A DNA stretch of 64,000 bases from an uncultured Eubacteriales bacterium (GCA_964646425.1 CAZYEI010000002.1:348-64347), one strand, 5' to 3'. Positions 27,395-63,148 are shown, counted from the first letter of the stretch. Numbers and translations are program-made. Notes: generated by a model from the letters alone, not told the origin.

Positions 27395-27470
27395 TGGTGG
27401 ACCGTGAGGGATTCGAACCCGCGACCCACTGATTAAGAGTCAGTTGCTCTACCAACTGAGCTAACGGTCC
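27395..27470 (-). tRNA. tRNA-Lys (anticodon CUU), with the CCA encoded
   Basis: The minus-strand sequence folds as a cloverleaf: GGACCGT-TA-GCTC-AGTTGGTA-GAGC-A-ACTGA-CTCTTAA-TCAGT-GGGTC-GCGGG-TTCGAAT-CCCTC-ACGGTCC-A-CCA. The T-stem has one C:U mismatch. Confidence 0.7.
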
Positions 27471-51264: not shown

Positions 51265-51729
51265 ATGATTGAAGATAAACTATATACATTGAAAGAATTG
51301 GCAGAATTAACTAAATTAACTGATAGAACTTTGAGAAATTATTTATCAAGTAATATTTTAAAAGGACATAAAATTGGTGGACAATGGAGATTTAATAAAG
51401 AAGAAGTCTCTGCATTATTTAAAAATGATGATTTTTATGTTGAAAGGAATAAAATTGCTAATTCTGCAATTAATCATTATATTGAAAATAAATATACATT
51501 TATTAGTGATTTCACTGGATGTGTTGTTATGGACTTTAAAATTTGTGATAAAGATAAAAAGAAAGCTTTTTTTGATAAAATTGAACTTATTGGGAAAAAT
51601 GATGATATTAAGGAAAAAGTTTCTTTTTTAGAAAAAAATGGACATATTAGAATGAATATAGTTGGTCCTATTGCTTATATAAAAAGGGTAATTGATTTGG
51701 TAGAACAATTTGCAATAAGTAATGATTAA
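51265..51729 (+). CDS. Excisionase/MerR-like helix-turn-helix DNA-binding protein
   Basis: Contains the HTH_17-like 'YTLKELAELTKLTDRTLRNYLSSNILKGHKIGGQWRF'. The C-terminal domain is unknown. Confidence 0.55.
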   Translation: MIEDKLYTLKELAELTKLTDRTLRNYLSSNILKGHKIGGQWRFNKEEVSALFKNDDFYVERNKIANSAINHYIENKYTFISDFTGCVVMDFKICDKDKKKAFFDKIELIGKNDDIKEKVSFLEKNGHIRMNIVGPIAYIKRVIDLVEQFAISND

Positions 51730-51767
51730 AAATACTTAAATATGAGTATTTTATGAGGAGGGATAAT

Positions 51768-53531
51768 ATGATATTTGGAAAACACATAAATAAATATTAC
51801 TTGAGATTTTCATGGGCATTAATAATTGGACTAGTTGCTTTAGCTTTAGTTGACATTTATCAACTGAAAATTCCCGAAATTTATAGTACCATTATTGATG
51901 GATTAAATGGAACTAGTGCTATACCTTTAAGCAAAGAACTTTTACTTGACTTAGTAAAAGAGATGTTTGGCATTGTGGCAGTTATGGTAATCGGGAGAGT
52001 ATTATGGCGTGTTTGTTTTTATGGAAGTGCAATAAAAACAGAAACGAGTATTAGAGAGAAAATGTTTAATCACTGTAAAGATTTACCACAAGAATTTTAT
52101 AGTCAAAATAAAGTTGGCTCACTTATGTCATTATTTACAAATGACTTAGGAACTATTCTAGAGTGTTTTGGTGATGGTATCTTAATGTTTTTTGATGCTT
52201 TGGTATTAGGGGGATTTGCTATTTATAAAATGTTTAGAGTAAATATTACTTTAGCTGCATTATCTATTATTCCACTAATTATTTTACTTTTAATTGGAAT
52301 TGTCGTTGGGGGATATATGGAGAAAAAATGGGAATTGCGTCAAGAAGCATTTTCAAATTTATCTGATTTTTCACAAGAGAGTTTCTCTGGTATTTCTGTA
52401 ATAAAGGCCTTTGTTAAAGAGGGAAAAGAATTATTTTATTTTAAAAAATTAAATAAAGATAATGAAAATGCAAATGTCACATTTGTAAAAGCATCTACCT
52501 TATTGCATATTTTAATTACATTATTAGTAGGTACTGTTATGTGTTTAATATTGGGAGTAGGTGGTTATCTAGTATATATTGGCGTTGAAGGATTTACTAT
52601 TGGTAAATTAATAGAATTTATGTCATATTTTAATTCAACGATCTGGCCAATGATGGCAATATCAAGTCTAATTGATATGACATCTAGAGGAAAAGCATCA
52701 TTAGGACGTATTTCCAATTTGTTAAATTATAAAAATAATGTTTGCGATTGTAGTGATGTTGAAGACATTTCTTTTATAAAAGGGGATATTGAATTTAAAA
52801 ATTTAACTTTTAGATATCCTGGAACTGAACATGACATTTTAAAAAATATTTCATTTAAAATTAATGCTGGAGAAAATATAGGGATTGTTGGAAAAACAGG
52901 TTGTGGAAAAACAACATTAGTTGATTTAATTTTACGATTATATAATGTTGATGATGGAAGTTTATTTATTGATAACAAAGATATAAACAAAATTCCAATC
53001 AAAACTGTTAGAAAATATTGTGCATATGTTCCACAAGATAATTTTTTGTTTAGTGATACGATAGAAGCTAATATAGCTTTTGCTTTTGATAATGTTGATA
53101 AGAAAAAAGTAGAAGAAGTAGCGAAGCTTGCTGATGTTCATTCTAATATTGTTGAATTTGAAAAGAAATATGAAACAGTTCTTGGTGAAAGAGGTGTAAC
53201 AATTTCCGGAGGTCAAAAACAACGTACAAGTATTGCTAGAGCTTTAATGAAGGACTCAGCAATATTAATTCTTGATGATTCGGTAAGTGCAGTTGACACA
53301 AAAACTGAAGAAATTATTTTAGGGAATCTTGCTAAATCTCGAAAAGGAAAAACAACTATTTTAATTGCTCATCGTATTTCTACAATTCAAAGTTTAGATA
53401 AAATTTTGTATATGGATGCTGGCAGAGTTGTTGCTTTTGATACTCATGATAATCTTTATAAGAATTGTGAGGATTATCGTAAAATGGTAGATTTACAAAA
53501 ATTAGAACAAGAAGATGGAGGTAATGCATAA
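51768..53531 (+). CDS. ABC exporter, fused permease/ATPase (heterodimer subunit A)
   Basis: Six TM helices precede an NBD with 'GKTGCGKTT', 'ISGGQKQR' and 'LILDDSVSAVD'. The start at 'MIFGKHINKYY' follows AGGAGGG; the tracked start includes the RBS. Confidence 0.8.
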   Translation: MIFGKHINKYYLRFSWALIIGLVALALVDIYQLKIPEIYSTIIDGLNGTSAIPLSKELLLDLVKEMFGIVAVMVIGRVLWRVCFYGSAIKTETSIREKMFNHCKDLPQEFYSQNKVGSLMSLFTNDLGTILECFGDGILMFFDALVLGGFAIYKMFRVNITLAALSIIPLIILLLIGIVVGGYMEKKWELRQEAFSNLSDFSQESFSGISVIKAFVKEGKELFYFKKLNKDNENANVTFVKASTLLHILITLLVGTVMCLILGVGGYLVYIGVEGFTIGKLIEFMSYFNSTIWPMMAISSLIDMTSRGKASLGRISNLLNYKNNVCDCSDVEDISFIKGDIEFKNLTFRYPGTEHDILKNISFKINAGENIGIVGKTGCGKTTLVDLILRLYNVDDGSLFIDNKDINKIPIKTVRKYCAYVPQDNFLFSDTIEANIAFAFDNVDKKKVEEVAKLADVHSNIVEFEKKYETVLGERGVTISGGQKQRTSIARALMKDSAILILDDSVSAVDTKTEEIILGNLAKSRKGKTTILIAHRISTIQSLDKILYMDAGRVVAFDTHDNLYKNCEDYRKMVDLQKLEQEDGGNA

Positions 53532-55408
53532 TGAATCCATTGTTAGTTATCGGAGCGATTCTTGGCACATTATCAATAATATTTTTAATTGCATTTTTAT
53601 CGATTAAAAATAAAAAGGAAGTATTAGGCTTTGAACGCAATATGAGTGATACATATATTATAAAAAGATTATTAGCGTATGCTAAGCCACATTTAAAATC
53701 ATTTATTATTGTATTTTTATTGATGGTATTTTGTGTTTCTGCTGATATTATATTGCCTATTATTACTGGTGGTGTAACTACCGTATTAGGCAAAGAAGAA
53801 TTTAAGTATTATGAAGTTTTAAGACTGGTTATATTGTATTTAGTATTATTAATATTATCAGTGATTTGCAGTTATTTTCAAGCAATTATTCTCCAAAAAA
53901 CAGGTCAAAAAATAATTTCAAAAATTAGAGAAGATGTATTTATTAATATTGAATCATTATCACATAGTCAATTAAACAATATACCAGTTGGAAAATTAGT
54001 AACTAGAGTTACAAATGATACTGATGCAGTATCAAATATGTTTACAGGCTTAGTTGTCAACTTAGTAAAGAATATATGTACAATTTTAGGTGTAGTAATT
54101 GCAATGTTTATTGTTAATATTCAATTATCACTAATGGTTATGTGTTTTGGACCATTTATTGTATATTTTACGATTATCTTTAGAAAATTTTCTCGAAAAT
54201 CATATCGAGAAGTTAGAAATAATATTACTGATATTAATACATTTTTATCAGAAAACTTAAGTGGCATAAAAATAACTCAAATTTTTAATCAAGAGAAAAA
54301 GAAATTAAATGATTTTATTGAAAAAAATAATCGTTTAAATAATTCAAGTATAAAACAAATATTTGTTTTTTCGGTTTTTAGACCATGTATTTATATGATT
54401 TATATTTTTTCGATAATTGCTTTGTTTTGGATTGCAGGTACTGCTGCTATTGATAAAGTAAAAGTTTTTGGACAAATTATTACATATTCAACAATTGTTA
54501 TTTTTTATCAATATTTATCTTCATTTTTTAATCCGATTCAAAATTTAGCAGAACAATTTAATAGATTACAATCTGCATTTGCATCTGCTGAAAAAATATT
54601 TACAATTATGGATATGAAACCAGAAGTTATAGATAGCGAAGATGCAATAGAATTGGAAAATATTAAAGGAGATATTGAGTTTAAAGATGTATGGTTTGCA
54701 TATATTGAAAATGATTGGGTATTAAAAGGCGTTTCATTTAAAGTAAAAGCAAAAGATACAGTTGCTTTTGTTGGCTCAACAGGAAGTGGAAAAACGACTA
54801 TTTTATCATTGATTGTCCGAAATTATGATATTCAAAGAGGACAAATTTTAATTGATGGTATTGACATTAAAAAAGTTAAGATTTCTTCCCTAAGAAAACA
54901 CTTTGGTCAAATGTTGCAAGATGTCTTTATTTTTAGTGGGACAATTAAGAGTAATATTGTTCTTAGAGAGGAATCGATAACAGATGAAGAGATAAATAAG
55001 GCTTGCAAGTATGTAAATGCTGATTACTTTATCAATCAATTAGATCATGGATTAGAAGAAAAAGTATTGGAAAGAGGAAACAATTTTTCGGCTGGACAAA
55101 GACAATTATTATCTTTTGCTAGAACTATTGTTCATAAACCGACAGTTATGATTCTAGATGAAGCAACGGCTAATATTGATACGGAAACTGAATTATTAAT
55201 TCAAGATTCATTAGAAAAGATGATGAATATTGGAACAATGTTAATTGTGGCACACAGATTATCAACAATTCAACACGCTGATAATATTATTGTATTATCT
55301 CATGGTGAAATAATCGAGCAAGGGAATCATCAACAATTATTAAAATTAAAAGGACATTATTATAATCTATATCAAATTCAGTATAATAAAGAATTATTAA
55401 GAAAATAA
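53531..55408 (+). CDS. ABC exporter, fused permease/ATPase (heterodimer subunit B)
   Basis: The NBD has 'GSTGSGKTT', 'FSAGQRQL' and 'MILDEATANID'. It overlaps the upstream stop (ATAATG). Confidence 0.8.
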   Translation: MNPLLVIGAILGTLSIIFLIAFLSIKNKKEVLGFERNMSDTYIIKRLLAYAKPHLKSFIIVFLLMVFCVSADIILPIITGGVTTVLGKEEFKYYEVLRLVILYLVLLILSVICSYFQAIILQKTGQKIISKIREDVFINIESLSHSQLNNIPVGKLVTRVTNDTDAVSNMFTGLVVNLVKNICTILGVVIAMFIVNIQLSLMVMCFGPFIVYFTIIFRKFSRKSYREVRNNITDINTFLSENLSGIKITQIFNQEKKKLNDFIEKNNRLNNSSIKQIFVFSVFRPCIYMIYIFSIIALFWIAGTAAIDKVKVFGQIITYSTIVIFYQYLSSFFNPIQNLAEQFNRLQSAFASAEKIFTIMDMKPEVIDSEDAIELENIKGDIEFKDVWFAYIENDWVLKGVSFKVKAKDTVAFVGSTGSGKTTILSLIVRNYDIQRGQILIDGIDIKKVKISSLRKHFGQMLQDVFIFSGTIKSNIVLREESITDEEINKACKYVNADYFINQLDHGLEEKVLERGNNFSAGQRQLLSFARTIVHKPTVMILDEATANIDTETELLIQDSLEKMMNIGTMLIVAHRLSTIQHADNIIVLSHGEIIEQGNHQQLLKLKGHYYNLYQIQYNKELLRK

Positions 55409-55412
55409 AGCA

Positions 55413-55458
55413 AAAGAATGCTATTAACGATGTTTAATGTTGATAGCATTCTTTTTGT
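55413..55458 (+). terminator. Rho-independent terminator
   Basis: GAATGCTATTAAC...GTTGATAGCATTC followed by TTTTTG. Confidence 0.65.
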
Positions 55459-55530
55459 TTGGGTAAAAATTTCTAATAATTAATAAAATATTGCTTGACA
55501 AACTATTAGATTTAATATATATTAAATATG

Positions 55531-55566
55531 GTTAGCGTTGACTAACAAGATAGGGTTAAATATTAT
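55531..55566 (+). promoter_or_regulatory. feoA promoter with an overlapping palindromic operator
   Basis: The palindrome GTTAGcgttgaCTAAC (55531-55546) overlaps a -35 TTGACT. A 17-nt spacer leads to a TATTAT -10. Confidence 0.45.
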
Positions 55567-55612
55567 TCTATTTATTGTTAGATGATTTATGCCAAGTGAA
55601 AGGGGGATTTAT

Positions 55613-55825
55613 ATGAATTTAAGTCAAGCGGAAATTGGAAAAGAATATATAATTCGTGAAATTAATACAGATGATGAAGAATTAAATGCTTTTTTATTTT
55701 CGTTAGGTTGTTATTCTGGTGAACCTATCACTGTTATCAATCGCCTTAAAGGTGGTTGTGTAGTGGCAATTAAAGATGGAAGATACAATATTGATTTACA
55801 ACTTGCACAATCCATCATTATATAG
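55613..55825 (+). CDS. feoA: FeoA-family ferrous iron transport protein
   Basis: 'MNLSQAEIGKEYIIREI...GDPI/EPITV' is the SH3-like FeoA fold. AAGGGGGAT lies upstream of the ATG at 55613; the tracked start is 8 codons earlier. Confidence 0.7.
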   Translation: MNLSQAEIGKEYIIREINTDDEELNAFLFSLGCYSGEPITVINRLKGGCVVAIKDGRYNIDLQLAQSIII

Positions 55826-55882
55826 TAATAAAAATTTTCTTTTTGCCAATCTAGTGCAATAAGAATTATTTTTTATTAATAT

Positions 55883-55898
55883 GTTAGCGTTAGCTAAC
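55883..55898 (+). promoter_or_regulatory. Perfect palindromic operator GTTAGC-gtta-GCTAAC upstream of feoB
   Basis: A 6-4-6 perfect inverted repeat, 20 nt upstream of the feoB RBS. It shares 'ATGTTAGCGTT' with the feoA site. Confidence 0.45.
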
Positions 55899-55918
55899 TT
55901 TGAAAAGGGGGAATTTAA

Positions 55919-57916
55919 ATGAAAATTGCTTTAACTGGTAATCCAAACAGTGGAAAAACAACAATGTATAATGCATTAACAGGGAGAAATGAAAAAGTAG
56001 GAAACTGGGCTGGAGTTACTGTTGAGAAAAAAGAACATCAAATTAAAAAAATATTTTACGATCGTGATGAACGTTTAGTTGCCGTTGACTTACCTGGAGC
56101 TTATTCAATGTCTCCATTTACGTCAGAAGAAAGTATTACAAGTTCATATGTTAAGAACGAAAATCCTGATGTTATTATTAATATTGTGGATTCTACAAAT
56201 TTAAGCCGTAGTTTATTTTTTACTACACAATTATTAGAATTACATATTCCAGTTGTTGTTGCTTTGAATAAGTCCGATATTAATAAACGAAAAGAAACGC
56301 AAATAGATGTTGCAAAATTATCTGAATTGTTAGGATGTCCTGTAATTGAAACTATTTCAACTTCTGCTACAGGATTAAATACTTTGATTGAAGCTGCTGT
56401 AAATGTCTATGGAAGAGGCCAAAAAGCGCCTTATTCACAAGGAAATATAGATATCACTGATAAAAAAGAAGTTGAAAAAGCTGACAGAGCAAGATTTGAT
56501 TTTGTTAATAAAATTGTTGCCGAAGTTGAAAAAAGAAAAATATTAACTAAAGAAAAAAATGTTCAAGATAAAATTGATGCAGTATTAACAAATAAATGGA
56601 TTGGTATTCCAATATTTGCTGTTGTAATGTTTCTAGTCTTTCAAATTTCTCAAGCATGGGTTGGTCCTTTTATTGCTGATACATTGTGTGATTTATTAGA
56701 AATATTTAAAAACTGGGTTGCTGATAGTCTTGCAAATTCTGCAGGAGAATTAGATATTTGGAGTTCAATATTAGTCGAAGGTGTAATTGGTGGCGTTATT
56801 GCTGTCTTGGGCTTTTTACCATTAGTTATGATTATGTATTTTTTAATTGCTTTATTAGAAGATTGTGGTTATATGGCCCGTGTTTCAGTGGTTTTAGATC
56901 CAATCTTTAAAAAAGTTGGTCTTTCAGGTAAATCAGTAATTCCGTTTGTTATTGGAACTGGCTGTGCAATTCCTGGTATTATGGCTTGTCGTACTATCCG
57001 TAATGAAAGAGAAAGACGAGCTACTGCAATGTTGACACCATTTATGCCATGTGGTGCTAAGTTGCCAGTAATTGCTTTATTTGCGGGTGTTTTCTTCGCT
57101 GATTCTTCATGGGTAGGTACTGTAATGTATTTTGTGGGAATTTTATTGATTCTTGCATGTGCACTTTTAATTAATCTTCTTACAGGATATAAAAATAGAA
57201 AATCATTCTTTATCATGGAACTTCCTGAATATAAGGTTCCAAATTTCTGGAAAGCTTTCTTATCTATGTGTGGCCGTGGTTGGGCTTATATAGTTAAGGC
57301 AGGAACAATTATTTTAGTTTGTAACTTTGCAGTTCATGTAATGCAAACATTTGATTGGAGCTTACATGTTGTTGACGCTAGTGATTCAATACTTCATGAT
57401 TTAGCGACACCATTTGCTTATATACTTGCACCAATTGTAGGAATTTGTGCATGGCAATTAGCTGCAGCTTCAGTTACAGGTTTTATTGCCAAAGAAAATA
57501 TTGTTGGAACATTAGCAGTTTGCTATGGAATCACAAATTTTATTAATGTAGATGATCTAATCTTAGAAAGTGGAGCAGAAGAAGTAGCAGCAATCTTTGC
57601 TATTACAAAAGTTGCTGGATTAGCATATTTAATGTTTAACTTATTTACACCACCTTGTTTTGCAGCGATCGGTGCAATGAATTCAGAAATTAAAAGTCGA
57701 AAATGGTTATGGGCTGGTATTGGTCTTCAATTTGCCGTAGGTTATACAGTTGGATTCTTAGTATTTTTCTTTGGTACATTATTTACAGGTGGCAGTTTAG
57801 GTGCACCATGGATGCCAATTGTAGGTTGGTTAATTGTTATTATAATAGCAGTGATTATTACTTCGCTTATTATCAAGAAAAATAGACATTTAAAGGAAGA
57901 ATATGCATTTAATTAG
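55919..57916 (+). CDS. feoB: Ferrous iron transporter B
   Basis: G-protein motifs 'GNPNSGKTT' and 'DLPG' are followed by the gate-motif membrane domain ('CAIPGIMACRTIRNERER'). Confidence 0.9.
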   Translation: MKIALTGNPNSGKTTMYNALTGRNEKVGNWAGVTVEKKEHQIKKIFYDRDERLVAVDLPGAYSMSPFTSEESITSSYVKNENPDVIINIVDSTNLSRSLFFTTQLLELHIPVVVALNKSDINKRKETQIDVAKLSELLGCPVIETISTSATGLNTLIEAAVNVYGRGQKAPYSQGNIDITDKKEVEKADRARFDFVNKIVAEVEKRKILTKEKNVQDKIDAVLTNKWIGIPIFAVVMFLVFQISQAWVGPFIADTLCDLLEIFKNWVADSLANSAGELDIWSSILVEGVIGGVIAVLGFLPLVMIMYFLIALLEDCGYMARVSVVLDPIFKKVGLSGKSVIPFVIGTGCAIPGIMACRTIRNERERRATAMLTPFMPCGAKLPVIALFAGVFFADSSWVGTVMYFVGILLILACALLINLLTGYKNRKSFFIMELPEYKVPNFWKAFLSMCGRGWAYIVKAGTIILVCNFAVHVMQTFDWSLHVVDASDSILHDLATPFAYILAPIVGICAWQLAAASVTGFIAKENIVGTLAVCYGITNFINVDDLILESGAEEVAAIFAITKVAGLAYLMFNLFTPPCFAAIGAMNSEIKSRKWLWAGIGLQFAVGYTVGFLVFFFGTLFTGGSLGAPWMPIVGWLIVIIIAVIITSLIIKKNRHLKEEYAFN

Positions 57917-58139
57917 TTTTTTAGCACTATTTATTTCTGGACAAATAATTGCAATTATAGCGATTATATTGATTATTGGCAGTGCATTACTTTATATAGT
58001 TAAAGCTAAAAAAAGTGGAAGAAAATGTATTGGTTGTCCTGATGGCTGTACTTGTAAAGTGAAAAAAATGCAAAAAAACTTAAAAAAAGCAAAAGGATAT
58101 TGTAGTTGCTGTTCGAATAACGAAAAAGAAAATAAATAA
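57903..58139 (+). CDS. FeoB-associated Cys-rich membrane protein
   Basis: One TM helix is followed by 'CIGCPDGCTCK...CSCC'. The gene overlaps the feoB stop. Confidence 0.6.
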   Translation: MHLISFLALFISGQIIAIIAIILIIGSALLYIVKAKKSGRKCIGCPDGCTCKVKKMQKNLKKAKGYCSCCSNNEKENK

Positions 58140-58145
58140 ATTTTT

Positions 58146-58177
58146 AGGTTGTAATAATTTATATTACAACCTTTTTA
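58146..58177 (+). terminator. Rho-independent terminator
   Basis: AGGTTGTAATA-atttat-ATTACAACCT followed by TTTTT. Confidence 0.65.
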
Positions 58178-58339
58178 TATAGATAATAAATTTATTATAT
58201 TATGTGCAATAAATAAAAATAATGCACAATTAAATACCTTTCTTCTTTAGAATTAATATAATTAATTATTGTAAAAAATGATTAAAAAATTATAAATAAG
58301 TCATACTAAATATAGAAATACTGAAAGGAGTTTAATTAT

Positions 58340-58498
58340 ATGAAATATGTATGTGATATATGTGGCTGGGTTTATGATGAAGAAGAAGGAAATATTGAAA
58401 ATGGAATTAAACCTGGAACAAAATTTGAAGATTTACCGGATGATTTTGCTTGTCCATTATGTGGAGTAGGCAAGGAAAATTTTAGTAAAGTAAAATAA
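58340..58498 (+). CDS. rd: Rubredoxin (52 aa); absent from the ORF track because it is under 60 aa
   Basis: The translation [52 protein letters not shown] carries the two rubredoxin motifs CxxCG and CPxCG. The RBS is AAAGGAG. Confidence 0.85.
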
Positions 58499-58527
58499 AA
58501 ATTTATTCATAGTATTAGATAAAATAA

Positions 58528-58576
58528 AAGTAGACTTTGTACAAAAATAAAAGAACTGTACAAGTCTACTTTTTAT
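58528..58576 (+). terminator. Rho-independent terminator
   Basis: AAAGTAGACTTTGTACA...TGTACAAGTCTACTTTTT. Confidence 0.7.
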
Positions 58577-58693
58577 TGTTTATTTTAAAATATACTTTTA
58601 ATTATTTTTTGTCAAAAAAAGATATTTCTTTTTATAAAAATATTAATATAATTGGTTAATTTCATTGATATACATTTGATATTTTGCTAAAAT

Positions 58694-58708
58694 GCTAACC
58701 ATGTTAGT
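58694..58708 (+). promoter_or_regulatory. Putative MarR autoregulatory operator
   Basis: GCTAAccatgTTAGt inverted repeat, preceded by a direct TGCTAA-aa-TGCTAA. It lies 20 nt upstream of the marR start. Confidence 0.4.
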
Positions 58709-58728
58709 TATTTGTGGAGGTGTTATTT

Positions 58729-59184
58729 ATGGATAAAAGAGAGCAAGCAATATTTTTGATGGATGAATTTAAAAAATGTCGTCCTCAAATGTTTTTTGAA
58801 AAATTTAATATAACTGAAAAAGGAACACATTTTGTTTTAGATTATTTGGTTCATCATAATGATGAAGTTATTTCAGCAGATTTATCTAATTCATTAGGGG
58901 TTTCAACTGCAAGAATGGCTAAATTGCTTAATAATATGGAGAAAAAGGGACTAATTAGGAAATATTCATCTAATATTGATGCTAGAAAAACGGTTATTGT
59001 TTTAACTAAGGAAGGAAGAACTTTAATTAGTAAACATCAAGAAGCATTAATAATTGCTATAAGTAAATTAATAGAAGAAGTTGGGTTTAAGGATATTAGT
59101 GAGTTTATTAGAATATCTTATAAGATGAAAAATTCAATGATTTTTGATGAAACAATTATTGAACAATTAAAAATTATTGAATAA
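58729..59184 (+). CDS. MarR-family transcriptional regulator
   Basis: Winged-helix region 'LSNSLGVSTARMAKLLNNMEKKGLIRKYSSNIDARKTVIVLTKEG'. The ATG at 58729 follows GGAGGTG. Confidence 0.75.
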   Translation: MDKREQAIFLMDEFKKCRPQMFFEKFNITEKGTHFVLDYLVHHNDEVISADLSNSLGVSTARMAKLLNNMEKKGLIRKYSSNIDARKTVIVLTKEGRTLISKHQEALIIAISKLIEEVGFKDISEFIRISYKMKNSMIFDETIIEQLKIIE

Positions 59185-59200
59185 AAACTTATAGGTAATA

Positions 59201-59215
59201 GCTAATATGGTTAGC
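59201..59215 (+). promoter_or_regulatory. Palindromic operator GCTAA-tatgg-TTAGC upstream of the ABC exporter pair
   Basis: A perfect 5-5-5 inverted repeat. It shares the 12-mer AATATGGTTAGC with the feoA site. Confidence 0.45.
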
Positions 59216-59240
59216 AAATAAATTAAAAGGAGGAATTATT

Positions 59241-61016
59241 ATGTTACATCTATTTAAGTATTTAAGGAAAAAAGATTGGATATATATGTTAATCGCTTTA
59301 GTTTTAATAGTCATACAAGTTGCGCTAGAATTAACAATACCAGATTATACAAAACAATTAACTATTATTGTTCAAAGTGGAGCAAATTCAATGGATGAAG
59401 TTTGGAAAAATGGTGGCTTAATGCTTTTATGTGCTTTGGGGAGTTTAATATGTGCGGTTATTTGTTCATATTTTATTTCTAAAGTTGCTAGTTCTTTTTC
59501 TAAAAATTTGCGTGAAAATTTATTTAATAAAATAACAAATTTTTCAAATTCAGAAATGAATAATTTTTCTACACCTAGTTTGATAACTAGAACTACAAAT
59601 GATGTTATGCAAATGCAAAATTTTATGGCTATCGGTGTTCAAATGTTATTTAAAGCACCGATAATGGCTATTTGGGCAATATGTAAAGTTGCTAAAACAG
59701 ATATAAGATGGACTACTGCTACAATTATTTGTATTTGTATAATTGTAATTTGTGTTGCTATTTTGGTTGCGATTTGTTTGCCTAGATTTAGAAAAATTCA
59801 AAAGTTAACTGATGAATTAAATGATGTTACACGAGAAAATGTAACTGGAGTTCGTGTTGTTAGAGCATTTAATGCAGAAAACTATCAAGAAAAAAAATTT
59901 GAAAAAGTAAATGATGAAATAACTAAAACAAGTTTATTTTCAAACAAAGCAATGGGGCTTATGTCACCTATAATGAATGTTTGTATGAATGGTTTAACAC
60001 TTGCTATTTATTGGATTGGTGCTCTATTAATAAATGAAATTTCGATTGCTGATTATTCAGGAAATATCAAAGATTTTGTTTTGGCTAAAGCAGATGTAAT
60101 TGCCAATATGACAGTTTTTACATCATATGCAATGCAAATTGTTATGTCTTTTATGCTTTTAATAGTTGTATTTATTATTTTACCTAGAACTATTATTTCT
60201 GGAAATCGTATTTGGGAGGTATTAAAAACAAATCCTAGCATTAATGATGGTATTAATGATGTAACTACAAATCAAATTGGTACAATTGAATTTAAGAATG
60301 TTTCATTTGCTTATTCTGCAGAATCTGAAGCTTCTATTAAAAATATCTCATTTAAGGTTAATAAAGGTGAAACACTTGCTATAATCGGAGCTACTGGTAG
60401 TGGCAAAACATCAATTATCAATTTAATCCCAAGATTTTATGATGCAACTGCTGGTGAAGTGTTTGTTGATGGAATTAATGTCAAGGATTATAAAATTAAA
60501 GAATTAAGAAATAAGATAGCAATTGCCTCACAAAAAGCTGCCTTATTTAAAGGAACTATTAAAGATAATATAGTATATGGATCTAAAAATAAGATAAATG
60601 AAGAGAAAATTGCTTTGGCAATTGATGTATCTAAATCTGATTTTATAGCTGAACTTGAAAAAGGTATTGATAGTGAAGTGGCTCAAGGCGGAACAAATTT
60701 CTCTGGTGGTCAAAAGCAAAGAATAAGTATTGCTAGGGCTTTATATAAAGATGCTGAAATTATGATTTTTGATGATACATTTTCAGCATTAGATTATAAA
60801 ACAGATATGCTAGTTAGAAAAGGAATAAAGGAAAATTTAAGGGAAAAAACAGTTATAATTATTGCTCAAAGAATTGGAACAATTATGAATGCTGATAAGA
60901 TTATTGTTTTAGATGAAGGAGAAATAGTCGGAATAGGAAGCCATGAAGAACTATTAAATAATTGTGCAGTATATAAAGAAATTGCTTTATCTCAACTTTC
61001 AAAGGAGGAATTATAA
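59241..61016 (+). CDS. ABC exporter, fused permease/ATPase (subunit A of the MarR-linked pair)
   Basis: TM domain plus NBD with 'GATGSGKTS', 'FSGGQKQR' and 'MIFDDTFSALD'. The RBS is AAGGAGG. Confidence 0.8.
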   Translation: MLHLFKYLRKKDWIYMLIALVLIVIQVALELTIPDYTKQLTIIVQSGANSMDEVWKNGGLMLLCALGSLICAVICSYFISKVASSFSKNLRENLFNKITNFSNSEMNNFSTPSLITRTTNDVMQMQNFMAIGVQMLFKAPIMAIWAICKVAKTDIRWTTATIICICIIVICVAILVAICLPRFRKIQKLTDELNDVTRENVTGVRVVRAFNAENYQEKKFEKVNDEITKTSLFSNKAMGLMSPIMNVCMNGLTLAIYWIGALLINEISIADYSGNIKDFVLAKADVIANMTVFTSYAMQIVMSFMLLIVVFIILPRTIISGNRIWEVLKTNPSINDGINDVTTNQIGTIEFKNVSFAYSAESEASIKNISFKVNKGETLAIIGATGSGKTSIINLIPRFYDATAGEVFVDGINVKDYKIKELRNKIAIASQKAALFKGTIKDNIVYGSKNKINEEKIALAIDVSKSDFIAELEKGIDSEVAQGGTNFSGGQKQRISIARALYKDAEIMIFDDTFSALDYKTDMLVRKGIKENLREKTVIIIAQRIGTIMNADKIIVLDEGEIVGIGSHEELLNNCAVYKEIALSQLSKEEL

Positions 61017-61018
61017 TA

Positions 61019-62820
61019 TGCCAGGTCCTATGAGAAGAAATGGTCCAATAGATTCTAAAGAAAAAGTAGATATTCAATCAATAAAAAAATTAATTGGCTA
61101 TTGTAAAAAATATTTATTGGCTATAATTATCGCTTTAATTTTTGCTTGTGTTTCTGCAGTAATTCAAATTATAAGTCCTGATAAAATATCTGATTTATTG
61201 GCTATAGTTCAAAAGGGAATTACATCAGTAGATAAAATAGATATGTCTAGTTTTTATGATGGTTGTGTTTTTCTTATTTCTATTTATGTAATTGGTGCAA
61301 TTGTGAGTTATTTACAACAATTTATCATGGCAAATGTTACCCAAAAGACAGCTAAAAAATTAAGGACAGATATTAATGATAAAATTAATAAATTACCATT
61401 AAGTTATTTTGATAAAACAACTAGAGGAGATATTTTATCTAGAGTAACTAATGATGTTGATACAATTTCTCAAACATTGGGTAGTACTATTGCAAATTTT
61501 GTAAATGCAATTACTTTATTAATAGGAGTTGTATTTATGATGTTTTATGTAAATGTAACACTTGCATTAATTACAATTTGTTCATCATTGTTGGGATTTG
61601 TCTTAATGTTTACTATTCTTGGTTTATCACAAAAGTATTTTAATAAAAGACAAAAAAATCTTGGAGAAATGAATGGACAAATTGAAGAAATATATACAAA
61701 TCACAATATTGTTAAATCATATAATGGTGAAAATCAAGCACGTCAAAAATTTATGGTAATTAACAACGAACTTTATCAAAATAACTTTAAGTCACAATTT
61801 TTATCAGGGTTTATGCCACCGATAATGACTTTTGTTGGAAATCTTTCATATGCATTAATTTTTATAGTAGGTATTGCTATGGCAATAAATGGTAATAATA
61901 GCGTTACTTTTCCAATAATTGTTTCATTTACAATGTATGCTAGATTATTTTCTTCACCTTTACAAACAATTGCTCAAGCTATGAGTTCAGTTCAACAAGC
62001 TTCTGCTGCGTCTAAAAGAGTTTTCGAAATGTTAGATGAAAAAGAAGTAGAAGATGAAACAAATAAAAATGTAGTTTTACCAAGTGTTGAAGGAAATGTT
62101 GAATTTAAAAATGTGAGATTTAGTTATGAAGAAAATAATCCTATTATTCATAATTTTTCTGCAAATTTAAAAAAAGGACAAAAAGTTGCTATTGTTGGTC
62201 CTACTGGAGCAGGAAAGACAACAATTGTAAATTTATTAATGCGTTTTTATGAAGTGGACTCTGGAGATATTTTAATTGATGGCGTTTCAATAAAAGAAAT
62301 GAAACGAGAAACAGTTAGAGATTTATTTGATATGATTCTTCAAGATACTTGGTTATTTAATGGTACAATTAGAGAAAATTTAGTTTATAATAAAAAGAAT
62401 GTAAGTGATGAAGAATTAAATACTGTTTGTAGAGCTGTGGGATTACGTCATTTTATAAAAACATTACCAAATGGATATGATACAAAATTAGATGATAATT
62501 TATCGCTTTCCGAAGGACAAAAACAACAATTAACAATTGCAAGAGCAATGATTAAAAATTCACCATTATTAATATTAGATGAAGCTACTTCAAGTGTTGA
62601 TACAAGAACTGAAATGGTTATTCAAAAAGCTATGGATAAATTAACTGAAGGAAGAACTTCATTTGTAATTGCTCATAGATTATCGACAATTAAAAATGCA
62701 GATGTAATCTTAGTGATGAAAAATGGTGATATTGTTGAGCAAGGAAATCACCAACAATTGTTAAGCAAAAAAGGATTTTATGCTGAAATATATAATTCTC
62801 AGTTTGAAATTATTTCATAA
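61019..62820 (+). CDS. ABC exporter, fused permease/ATPase (subunit B)
   Basis: NBD with 'GPTGAGKTT', 'LSEGQKQQ' and 'LILDEATSSVD'. The start at 'MPGPMRRNGP' follows AAGGAGG; the tracked start overlaps the upstream gene by 53 nt. Confidence 0.75.
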
Positions 62821-62884: not shown

Positions 62885-63148
62885 ATGGACAAACCAAAAA
62901 TTAAAATAACGCTTATAGATAGAAAAGGTGATATGCCATGTCATAGAAGGCATAAAATAGGAGATAGTTTTGATTTTGATACTGAAAGAGGAAAATTATG
63001 TCCAATGGCAATGCATGTTGCTTTTGCATATGTAGAGATATTGAGATATGGTGGTAGCATTCCTACATCGAAAGATAAAATTATAAAATTTTCATGTCCT
63101 GATGCTGATACATTGAATATTTTTAAAATTGAAGTTGAAAATAATTAA
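62885..63148 (+). CDS. Small Cys/His-rich protein (TIGR04076-like)
   Basis: An 87-aa protein with 'MPCHRRH', 'KLCPMAMH' and 'FSCPDAD' as candidate metal ligands. The RBS is GGGGGAGAG. Confidence 0.45.
   Translation: MDKPKIKITLIDRKGDMPCHRRHKIGDSFDFDTERGKLCPMAMHVAFAYVEILRYGGSIPTSKDKIIKFSCPDADTLNIFKIEVENN

Follow-up and report, generated by a model that had tools for sequence, protein, structure and literature searches.

In many Firmicutes, Fur is the usual regulator of the feo iron-import genes, and iron regulation in the gut Clostridia and Bacilli considered here is usually assumed to be Fur-based. Systems of the MarR/OhrR/SlyA type combine an autoregulated MarR-family repressor with efflux operons. 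Repressors of the DtxR/IdeR family have been described mainly from Gram-positives rich in GC and from archaea (PMC11672702). Their classical box, TTAGGTTAGCCTAACCTAA, is bound by two dimers on opposite faces (PMC7762939), with one dimer of the 19-bp box on pentamer repeats 1 and 3, the second one on repeats 2 and 4 (PMC8464063). A single-dimer "half" site, TTAGGNNNNCCTAA (TTAGG-N4-CCTAA), where one dimer suffices, is known from Saccharopolyspora erythraea (Marcos-Torres et al. 2021, PMC8464063), and reports of this mode of binding so far concern one actinobacterial promoter (PMC8464063). We have analyzed a 64,000-nt stretch of DNA from an uncultured Eubacteriales bacterium (GCA_964646425.1 CAZYEI010000002.1:348-64347; "the window" is this whole 64-kb stretch), in which a feoA-feoB operon, a rubredoxin gene and a cassette of a MarR-family gene (marR) plus an ABC exporter pair follow one another. 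Four short palindromes in this region, located before feoA, feoB, marR and the first ABC gene, probably belong to two separate repressor circuits.

A first-pass annotation of the window had grouped the four palindromes as one TTAGC/GCTAA family and proposed that they place feoAB, rubredoxin, marR and the exporter under a single MarR repressor. The palindromes themselves were confirmed, and their conserved positions in relatives predict, as had been supposed, that all four are operators:

55531..55546, site 1, predicted feo-type operator, GTTAGCGTTGACTAAC (TTAGC-N4-aCTAA), 7 nt after the feoA -10 and spanning about +1 to +16 of feoA
55883..55898, site 2, predicted feo-type operator, GTTAGCGTTAGCTAAC, 20 nt before the feoB ATG
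58694..58708, site 3, predicted MarR-cassette operator, GCTAACCATGTTAGT (GCTAAC-CAT-GTTAGT), abutting the marR -10
59201..59215, site 4, predicted MarR-cassette operator, GCTAATATGGTTAGC (GCTAAT-ATG-GTTAGC), between marR and the ABC gene

As had also been reported, two of these sites have a 12-mer in common: AATATGGTTAGC occurs exactly at 55525 and 59204, and we found a minus-strand copy with 1 mismatch at 58694. The four sites are, however, of two opposite geometries. Sites 1 and 2 have the inverted form GTTAG-N6-CTAAC (TTAGC-GTTG-ACTAA and TTAGC-GTTA-GCTAA, respectively), whereas sites 3 and 4 have CTAAC/T-N3-GTTAG, which is an everted arrangement. When the family was defined loosely, we counted 9 matches to TTAG-N4-7-CTAA in the window versus 7.3 expected, and 13 matches to CTAA-N4-7-TTAG versus 7.4 expected; these counts are at or near chance, and therefore give no support for a family. 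The specific words were strongly non-random. GGTTAGC occurs 3 times in the 64 kb, both strands considered, and all 3 occurrences are in these promoters, while the five intergenic regions (744 bp) hold 6 copies of GTTAGC/GCTAAC, where 0.23 are expected (26-fold enrichment, Poisson P=2e-7).

We consider it probable, from the comparisons with relatives described below, that sites 1 and 2 are a DtxR/IdeR-type operator on the feo genes and that sites 3 and 4 are a MarR operator on marR and the exporter, in separate circuits. The best explanation of the observations is that two independent repressor circuits are adjacent by happenstance and both rely on the pentamer GTTAG/CTAAC, one in the inverted and the other in the everted arrangement. 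In relatives, the two motifs occupy conserved positions, are mutually exclusive, and are each linked to their respective regulator genes. We infer which protein binds, whether a metal or ligand is needed, and in which direction each circuit acts.

For the feo-type motif, a FeoB scan of one genome per species gave 80 loci (58-81% identical; counts are given on 79) from gut metagenome-assembled genomes of Clostridia, Christensenellaceae, Oscillospiraceae, Lachnospiraceae, Erysipelotrichaceae/Bacilli and Anaeroplasmataceae, with GC contents of 26-62%. In nearly all 79 loci, the feoA-feoB spacer contains 1-2 copies of (T/G)GTTAGC-N4-GCTAAC(A/C). Exact GTTAG-N6-CTAAC was present in 101 copies in the 855 kb of FeoB loci plus window, compared with ~1 expected, and almost all copies are located either at -30 to -110 relative to feoB, within the feoA-feoB spacer, or before feoA, at -310 to -510. 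In ~20 relatives the layout upstream of feoA is TTGACA-17-TATAAT followed, mostly after 6-8 nt, by GTTAGC, and the corresponding gap in the window is 7 nt. A weight matrix that was built from 95 sites of the relatives, with the window excluded, ranked site 1 first in the window (position 55528, 24.1 bits) and site 2 second (position 55880, 23.5 bits), the next score being 8.4 bits; sites 3 and 4 scored below -19 bits.

The spacer copies are also placed in a regular way. We observed a T-run, often after a small hairpin, in 56 of 57 feoA-feoB spacers of relatives, and in 37 of the 56 (among L013-L092) it ended exactly 8 nt before GTTAG, the same distance as in the window (55869-55898). This module of T-run, 8 nt and operator suggests an internal promoter, with a -35 starting in the T-run and a -10 formed by the right operator arm (TAACAA); the candidate in the window is TTATTA-16-TAACTT, and relatives, read by eye, have TTGNNN-16-TAACAA. 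Alternatively, the module suggests a terminator-plus-roadblock device uncoupling feoA from feoB. A terminator scan of the window made no call at the hairpin and T-run that follow feoA (55858..55874).

The fixed spacing after the T-run, and the location of both feo copies within predicted transcripts, are also consistent with a different reading of sites 1 and 2, namely as hairpins (GUUAGC-loop-GCUAAC) in the RNA, one at the feoA mRNA 5' end and one ahead of the feoB ribosome-binding site. They would then act on mRNA stability, processing or translation, and not as operators in the DNA. Flanking positions -1/+16 were complementary in 58 cases versus 31.6 expected, and both arms are changed together, to GTTCGC...GCGAAC, in L021 and L027. 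The flank complementarity, however, was lost in a within-genome permutation (p=0.21) and does not reach further outward. Conservation falls on the stem sequence and leaves the loop free to vary, as in a DNA site bound by a dimer, and degenerate copies are mostly altered in one arm only. At position 6, the pair C..A, a mismatch in the sense RNA, was found 19 times, versus once for the wobble-compatible T..G. A search of 55380-59300 with 4227 Rfam covariance models returned only a chance-level U7 match (E=0.44), and thus no Rfam family was matched; moreover, the motif fits the consensus of the single-dimer IdeR site, and a DtxR-family gene is linked to it. The DNA operator is therefore favored, and we regard an RNA-hairpin function for the feo palindromes, at either location, as improbable.

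In the feoA-feoB spacers of L021 and L027, one copy is GTTCGC-N4-GCGAAC, symmetrically changed in both arms, and the second is a hybrid, GTTCGC-N4-GCTAAC. These may mark a lineage with a shifted repressor specificity.

The MarR protein of the window has only 14 homologues in 5.8 billion proteins. We collected the loci of five of these, 37-62% identical and represented by several contigs each (89.6 kb in total), in which the gene order is marR-ABC-ABC in four and marR-degV in one. RCTAAC-N3-GTTAGY is located directly 3' of a TTGAYA-17-TAAAAT marR promoter in every MarR locus fetched, down to 37% identity (TTGAYA...TAAAAT and then the operator directly, in L001, L011, L093, L095 and L097), such that, in the window as in 6 distinct orthologous loci, the operator abuts the marR -10. 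A second operator copy lies between marR and the ABC gene in the ABC-containing loci L001, L011, L093 and L095. All of the exact MarR-type copies in the 89.6 kb (36/36) are at these two positions, and no feo-type site was found in the same 89.6 kb. When a MarR weight matrix, built from 9 sites of relatives with the window excluded, was scored over 128,000 window positions, site 3 ranked first (58693, 20.8 bits) and site 4 second (59200, 13.1 bits), and the best scores near sites 1 and 2 were 4.2 and -0.7 bits, with ranks below 74 and below 404, which is background. The conserved positions, together with the ranking by a matrix made from relatives only, argue for sites 3 and 4 as operators conserved with the MarR cassette. 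By abutting the -10, site 3 is in the classical position for autorepression.

These results bear directly on the proposal that a single MarR dimer recognizes each of the four TTAGC/GCTAA palindromes and represses feoAB, rubredoxin, marR and the exporter pair together. The proposal draws on the common pentamer, on the exact occurrence of the 12-mer in sites 1 and 4, on the adjacency of the genes, on the lack of another candidate regulator gene in the window, and on a weak likeness of the MarR winged helix-turn-helix (wHTH) to a DtxR-like wHTH. Yet the half-sites face in opposite directions, N6 inverted versus N3 everted, and a rigid symmetric dimer cannot read both; the matrices from relatives select sites 1 and 2 or sites 3 and 4, and never score the other pair above background. 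The feo motif follows feoA and feoB through ~75 genomes that have no linked MarR, and the 853 kb of FeoB loci from relatives contain no MarR-type site at feo (4 exact MarR-type matches occur there, far from feo, and the one that was inspected is in a coding region). Conversely, the MarR cassettes of relatives carry only the everted geometry and in no case adjoin feo, their neighbors being a xanthine/uracil permease, a PemK toxin or another ABC pair. Also, neither the feo-type nor the MarR-type motif is present at the rubredoxin promoter. We consider a single MarR regulon that couples feoAB, rubredoxin and the exporter to be very unlikely. Control by MarR, acting at sites 3 and 4, is plausible for its own gene and for the downstream exporter, and is not supported for feoAB or rubredoxin.

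As to a regulator for the feo-type sites, we clustered all open reading frames (ORFs) within 6 kb of feoB in the 79 FeoB loci. The only recurrent regulator was a protein of ~120 aa with PF01325 and PF02742, present in 28/79 loci, where its gene is either in the operon downstream of feoB or divergent from feoA, sharing the motif-bearing spacer. It is a two-domain protein in which no SH3-like domain was found, and its solved relatives are, best first, DtxR (6e-10), IdeR and MntR. In alignment, Met10, Cys102, Glu105 and His106 are conserved and the ancillary-site residues Glu83 and His98 are not; Met10 and Cys102 are ligands held to confer selectivity for Fe over Mn (PMC11672702). In a reciprocal test, 80 metagenome loci were picked by the regulator gene alone (79 counted), and the motif, with at most 1 mismatch allowed, was present at most 350 bp upstream of the regulator gene in 22 of 79, compared with 2 of 239 control windows (P=8e-13). 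By these features, sites 1 and 2 are predicted to be single-dimer operators of an Fe2+-dependent repressor of the DtxR/IdeR family.

In L104-L106, L137, L143, L161 and L173, which are among the loci selected in this way, the motif lies 125-235 bp upstream of the gene for the DtxR-like protein, and tblastn found no feoA or feoB in them, with the limit that several of the contigs are short and that short FeoA genes may have been missed. These loci hint at autoregulation and possibly at further, non-feo targets.

Several observations weigh against the assignment to two circuits as we have drawn it. No regulator was found within 6 kb in 51 of the 79 FeoB loci, and in most regulator-selected loci the motif is not directly upstream; the linkage is therefore strong, not universal. 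In the 64-kb window, a search by Pfam on small ORFs, by tblastn and by a custom hidden Markov model (HMM) of 28 DtxR-like proteins found no gene for a DtxR-family protein, for Fur or for another metalloregulator, the sole HMM match being a weak one (E=3.5e-4) to the MarR wHTH (58708-59181); the feo repressor of this genome is thus assumed and not seen. Position 6 of the feo motif is asymmetric, with GTTAGC...ACTAAC 19 times and the mirror form GTTAGT...GCTAAC once in 97 aligned sites, and this is not predicted by a purely symmetric DNA site, although an A-rich sense strand or an overlapping signal may be the cause. Lastly, the 12-mer common to sites 1 and 4 runs 6 bases past GTTAGC, an extension that is unlikely to arise by chance (by our rough estimate, ~1e-3 per comparison, or ~1e-2 allowing for ~12 comparisons). 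We tentatively attribute the 12-mer to chance plus AT-richness; the MarR matrix gave no support for the extra six bases.

The lack of a DtxR-like gene in the window and near feoB in those 51 loci would also suit an operator that serves a regulator of another family, such as a diverged Fur or an unrecognized factor, and Fur is what usually regulates feo in many Firmicutes. But a search for a 19-bp Fur box (GATAATGATAATCATTATC-like) at the feo promoters found none, the best match being 13/19, a score equalled or beaten at 63 window positions, and no other regulator family recurs near feo. Moreover, the regions upstream of the DtxR-like genes are themselves enriched in the motif, including in loci without a detectable feo gene, and its geometry matches that of IdeR. 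A non-DtxR regulator therefore seems to us unlikely.

The pentamer GTTAG/CTAAC is used by the MarR operators (everted, N3) and by the DtxR-like operators (inverted, N6) alike, which could be convergence or a shared recognition-helix solution. Since this genome has its feo and marR cassettes side by side, with no DtxR gene to be seen in the window, it is conceivable, although we think it highly unlikely, that MarR and the DtxR-like repressor read GTTAG via related winged-helix modules and that MarR touches the GGTTAGC half-sites of the feo operators. Such contact, if real, would account for the exact 12-mer of sites 1 and 4 and would tie iron import to efflux, as the first-pass proposal did on a larger scale.

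The arrangement of genes and signals in which the two putative circuits would operate is as follows:

55495..55523, + strand, feoA promoter: -35 TTGACA (55495-55500), 17-nt spacer, -10 TATATT (55518-55523); the region's top promoter-like site, 11/12
55613..55825, + strand, feoA: 70 aa from an ATG after a GGGGG ribosome-binding site; Pfam FeoA, E=3e-13
55858..55874, + strand, weak AT-only hairpin AATAA-gaa-TTATT plus T-run 3' of feoA, ending 8 nt before site 2 (read from the sequence)
55919..57916, + strand, feoB: Pfam FeoB_N, Gate and FeoB_C
57903..58139, + strand, FeoB-associated Cys-rich membrane protein, encoded last in the feo operon: Pfam PF12669, 25.8 bits, just under the cut-off
58146-58172, terminator 3' of the Cys-rich gene: terminator-like hairpin of 11 pairs plus T-run
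58340-58498, rubredoxin gene, monocistronic
58665..58693, + strand, marR promoter: TTGATA-17-TAAAAT with TG extension, 10/12 with TG
58729..59184, + strand, marR: 151 aa, ATG after GGAGG; Pfam MarR, MarR_2 and HTH_34 above cut-offs, also SarA/Rot
59241..62820, + strand, heterodimeric ABC half-transporter pair: first gene 59241-61016, second probably from ATG 61018 to 62820; Pfam ABC_membrane and ABC_tran in both

FeoA proteins of relatives begin at the same MNL... residues as the feoA start given here. NCBIfam gave only weak, sub-threshold matches of the MarR protein to several MarR subfamilies, and only generic MsbA/multidrug-like matches, below cut-offs, for the ABC pair. The earlier placement of site 1 over the feoA -35 is most likely incorrect, as the best promoter (11/12) puts this site 7 nt after the -10; given the conserved promoter layout of relatives, the -35 proposed earlier (TTGACT, inside the palindrome) is therefore probably not a promoter element.

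In the model that we favor, a metal-loaded dimer of the putative DtxR/IdeR-type repressor would occupy TTAGC-N4-GCTAA when iron is plentiful, at one copy just downstream of the feoA -10 and at another in the feoA-feoB spacer, after the terminator-like T-run. Binding may block initiation, read-through, or a weak internal promoter. When iron is low, the repressor would be released and feoA-feoB and the Cys-rich gene would be turned on. The adjacent MarR-family dimer would bind sites 3 and 4 and repress its own promoter, as suggested by the operator that abuts the -10, and would also repress the downstream ABC exporter pair until a ligand releases it.

The rubredoxin gene is preceded by two other elements, an inverted repeat TGTGCA-N14-TGCACA (58203-58228) and a match of 12/14 to a PerR-type box, TTAGAATTAATATAA (58247-58261). 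Of the Fur and PerR boxes considered, no convincing Fur box was present at feo, and the sole PerR-like match is this weak one; since it is among the 8 best in the window, it may be due to chance in AT-rich DNA. The two elements could constitute a separate redox-stress operator.

Directly upstream of feoA there is a second regulator-plus-exporter cassette (51265-55408), consisting of a 154-aa protein of the HTH_17/excisionase type (MerR-like; 51265-51729) and ABC half-transporters at 51753-53531 and 53531-55408; neither palindrome type was found at its promoter. The first-pass description of marR as the only MarR gene holds for the ORFs tested, and the HTH gene in front of the other ABC pair is of this different type. 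A very large ORF (43399-51120; 2573 aa) lies just upstream of the cassettes. Directly 3' of the ABC pair that MarR is predicted to control, 62885-63148 encodes a small Cys-containing protein of the TIGR04076 family (87 aa, E=2e-22). The window has one tRNA gene, on the minus strand (27398-27470; Rfam, 70 bits).

This region illustrates that a shared 5-mer does not make a regulon, and that geometry and phylogenetic footprinting can separate two systems cleanly. The analysis yielded, as by-products, a sharply defined operator, (T/G)GTTAGC-N4-GCTAAC(A/C), and, for feoAB in many uncultured gut Clostridia and Bacilli, a candidate two-domain DtxR repressor of the Fe type; the feo operators appear to be natural single-dimer sites of the IdeR type. 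The operator of a rare MarR-ABC exporter cassette was defined as well. Within the papers covered, a literature search found no description of this feo operator in Firmicutes, although databases of the RegPrecise type were outside that search and an earlier description is possible.

Both circuits are of known kinds and represent ordinary regulation; they are new only as members of their families. Compared with Fur-controlled feoAB, which is usual in many bacteria, the feo circuit has the same target genes and the same presumed logic, repression when iron is sufficient, but a Fur box is lacking and the motif and linked regulator are those of the DtxR family. The feo circuit also resembles IdeR/DtxR iron boxes, specifically the single-dimer site of S. 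erythraea IdeR. Sites 1 and 2 have inverted TTAGS/SCTAA pentamers 4 bp apart (TTAG-N6-CTAA); site 1 overlaps the promoter/start of an iron-uptake operon, at a position conserved in relatives; and the linked regulator of the relatives has the DtxR N-terminal wHTH, a dimerization/metal domain and the Fe-type primary site of Met10, Cys102, Glu105 and His106. The feo circuit differs from these systems in having one dimer site and not the 19-bp two-dimer box, C and not G as the fifth base (TTAGC), a regulator of ~120 aa with two domains, without the SH3-like domain and without conserved Glu83 and His98, hosts that are low-GC gut Firmicutes, and a second operator inside the operon, after a T-run. 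The MarR cassette is like MarR/OhrR/SlyA operons in that a wHTH MarR-family gene is first in the operon, a short palindromic operator lies over its own -10/+1, and an exporter is downstream; it differs in that the operator sequence is specific to a small clade, that of the 14 homologues, and in the presence of a second operator between marR and the ABC gene.

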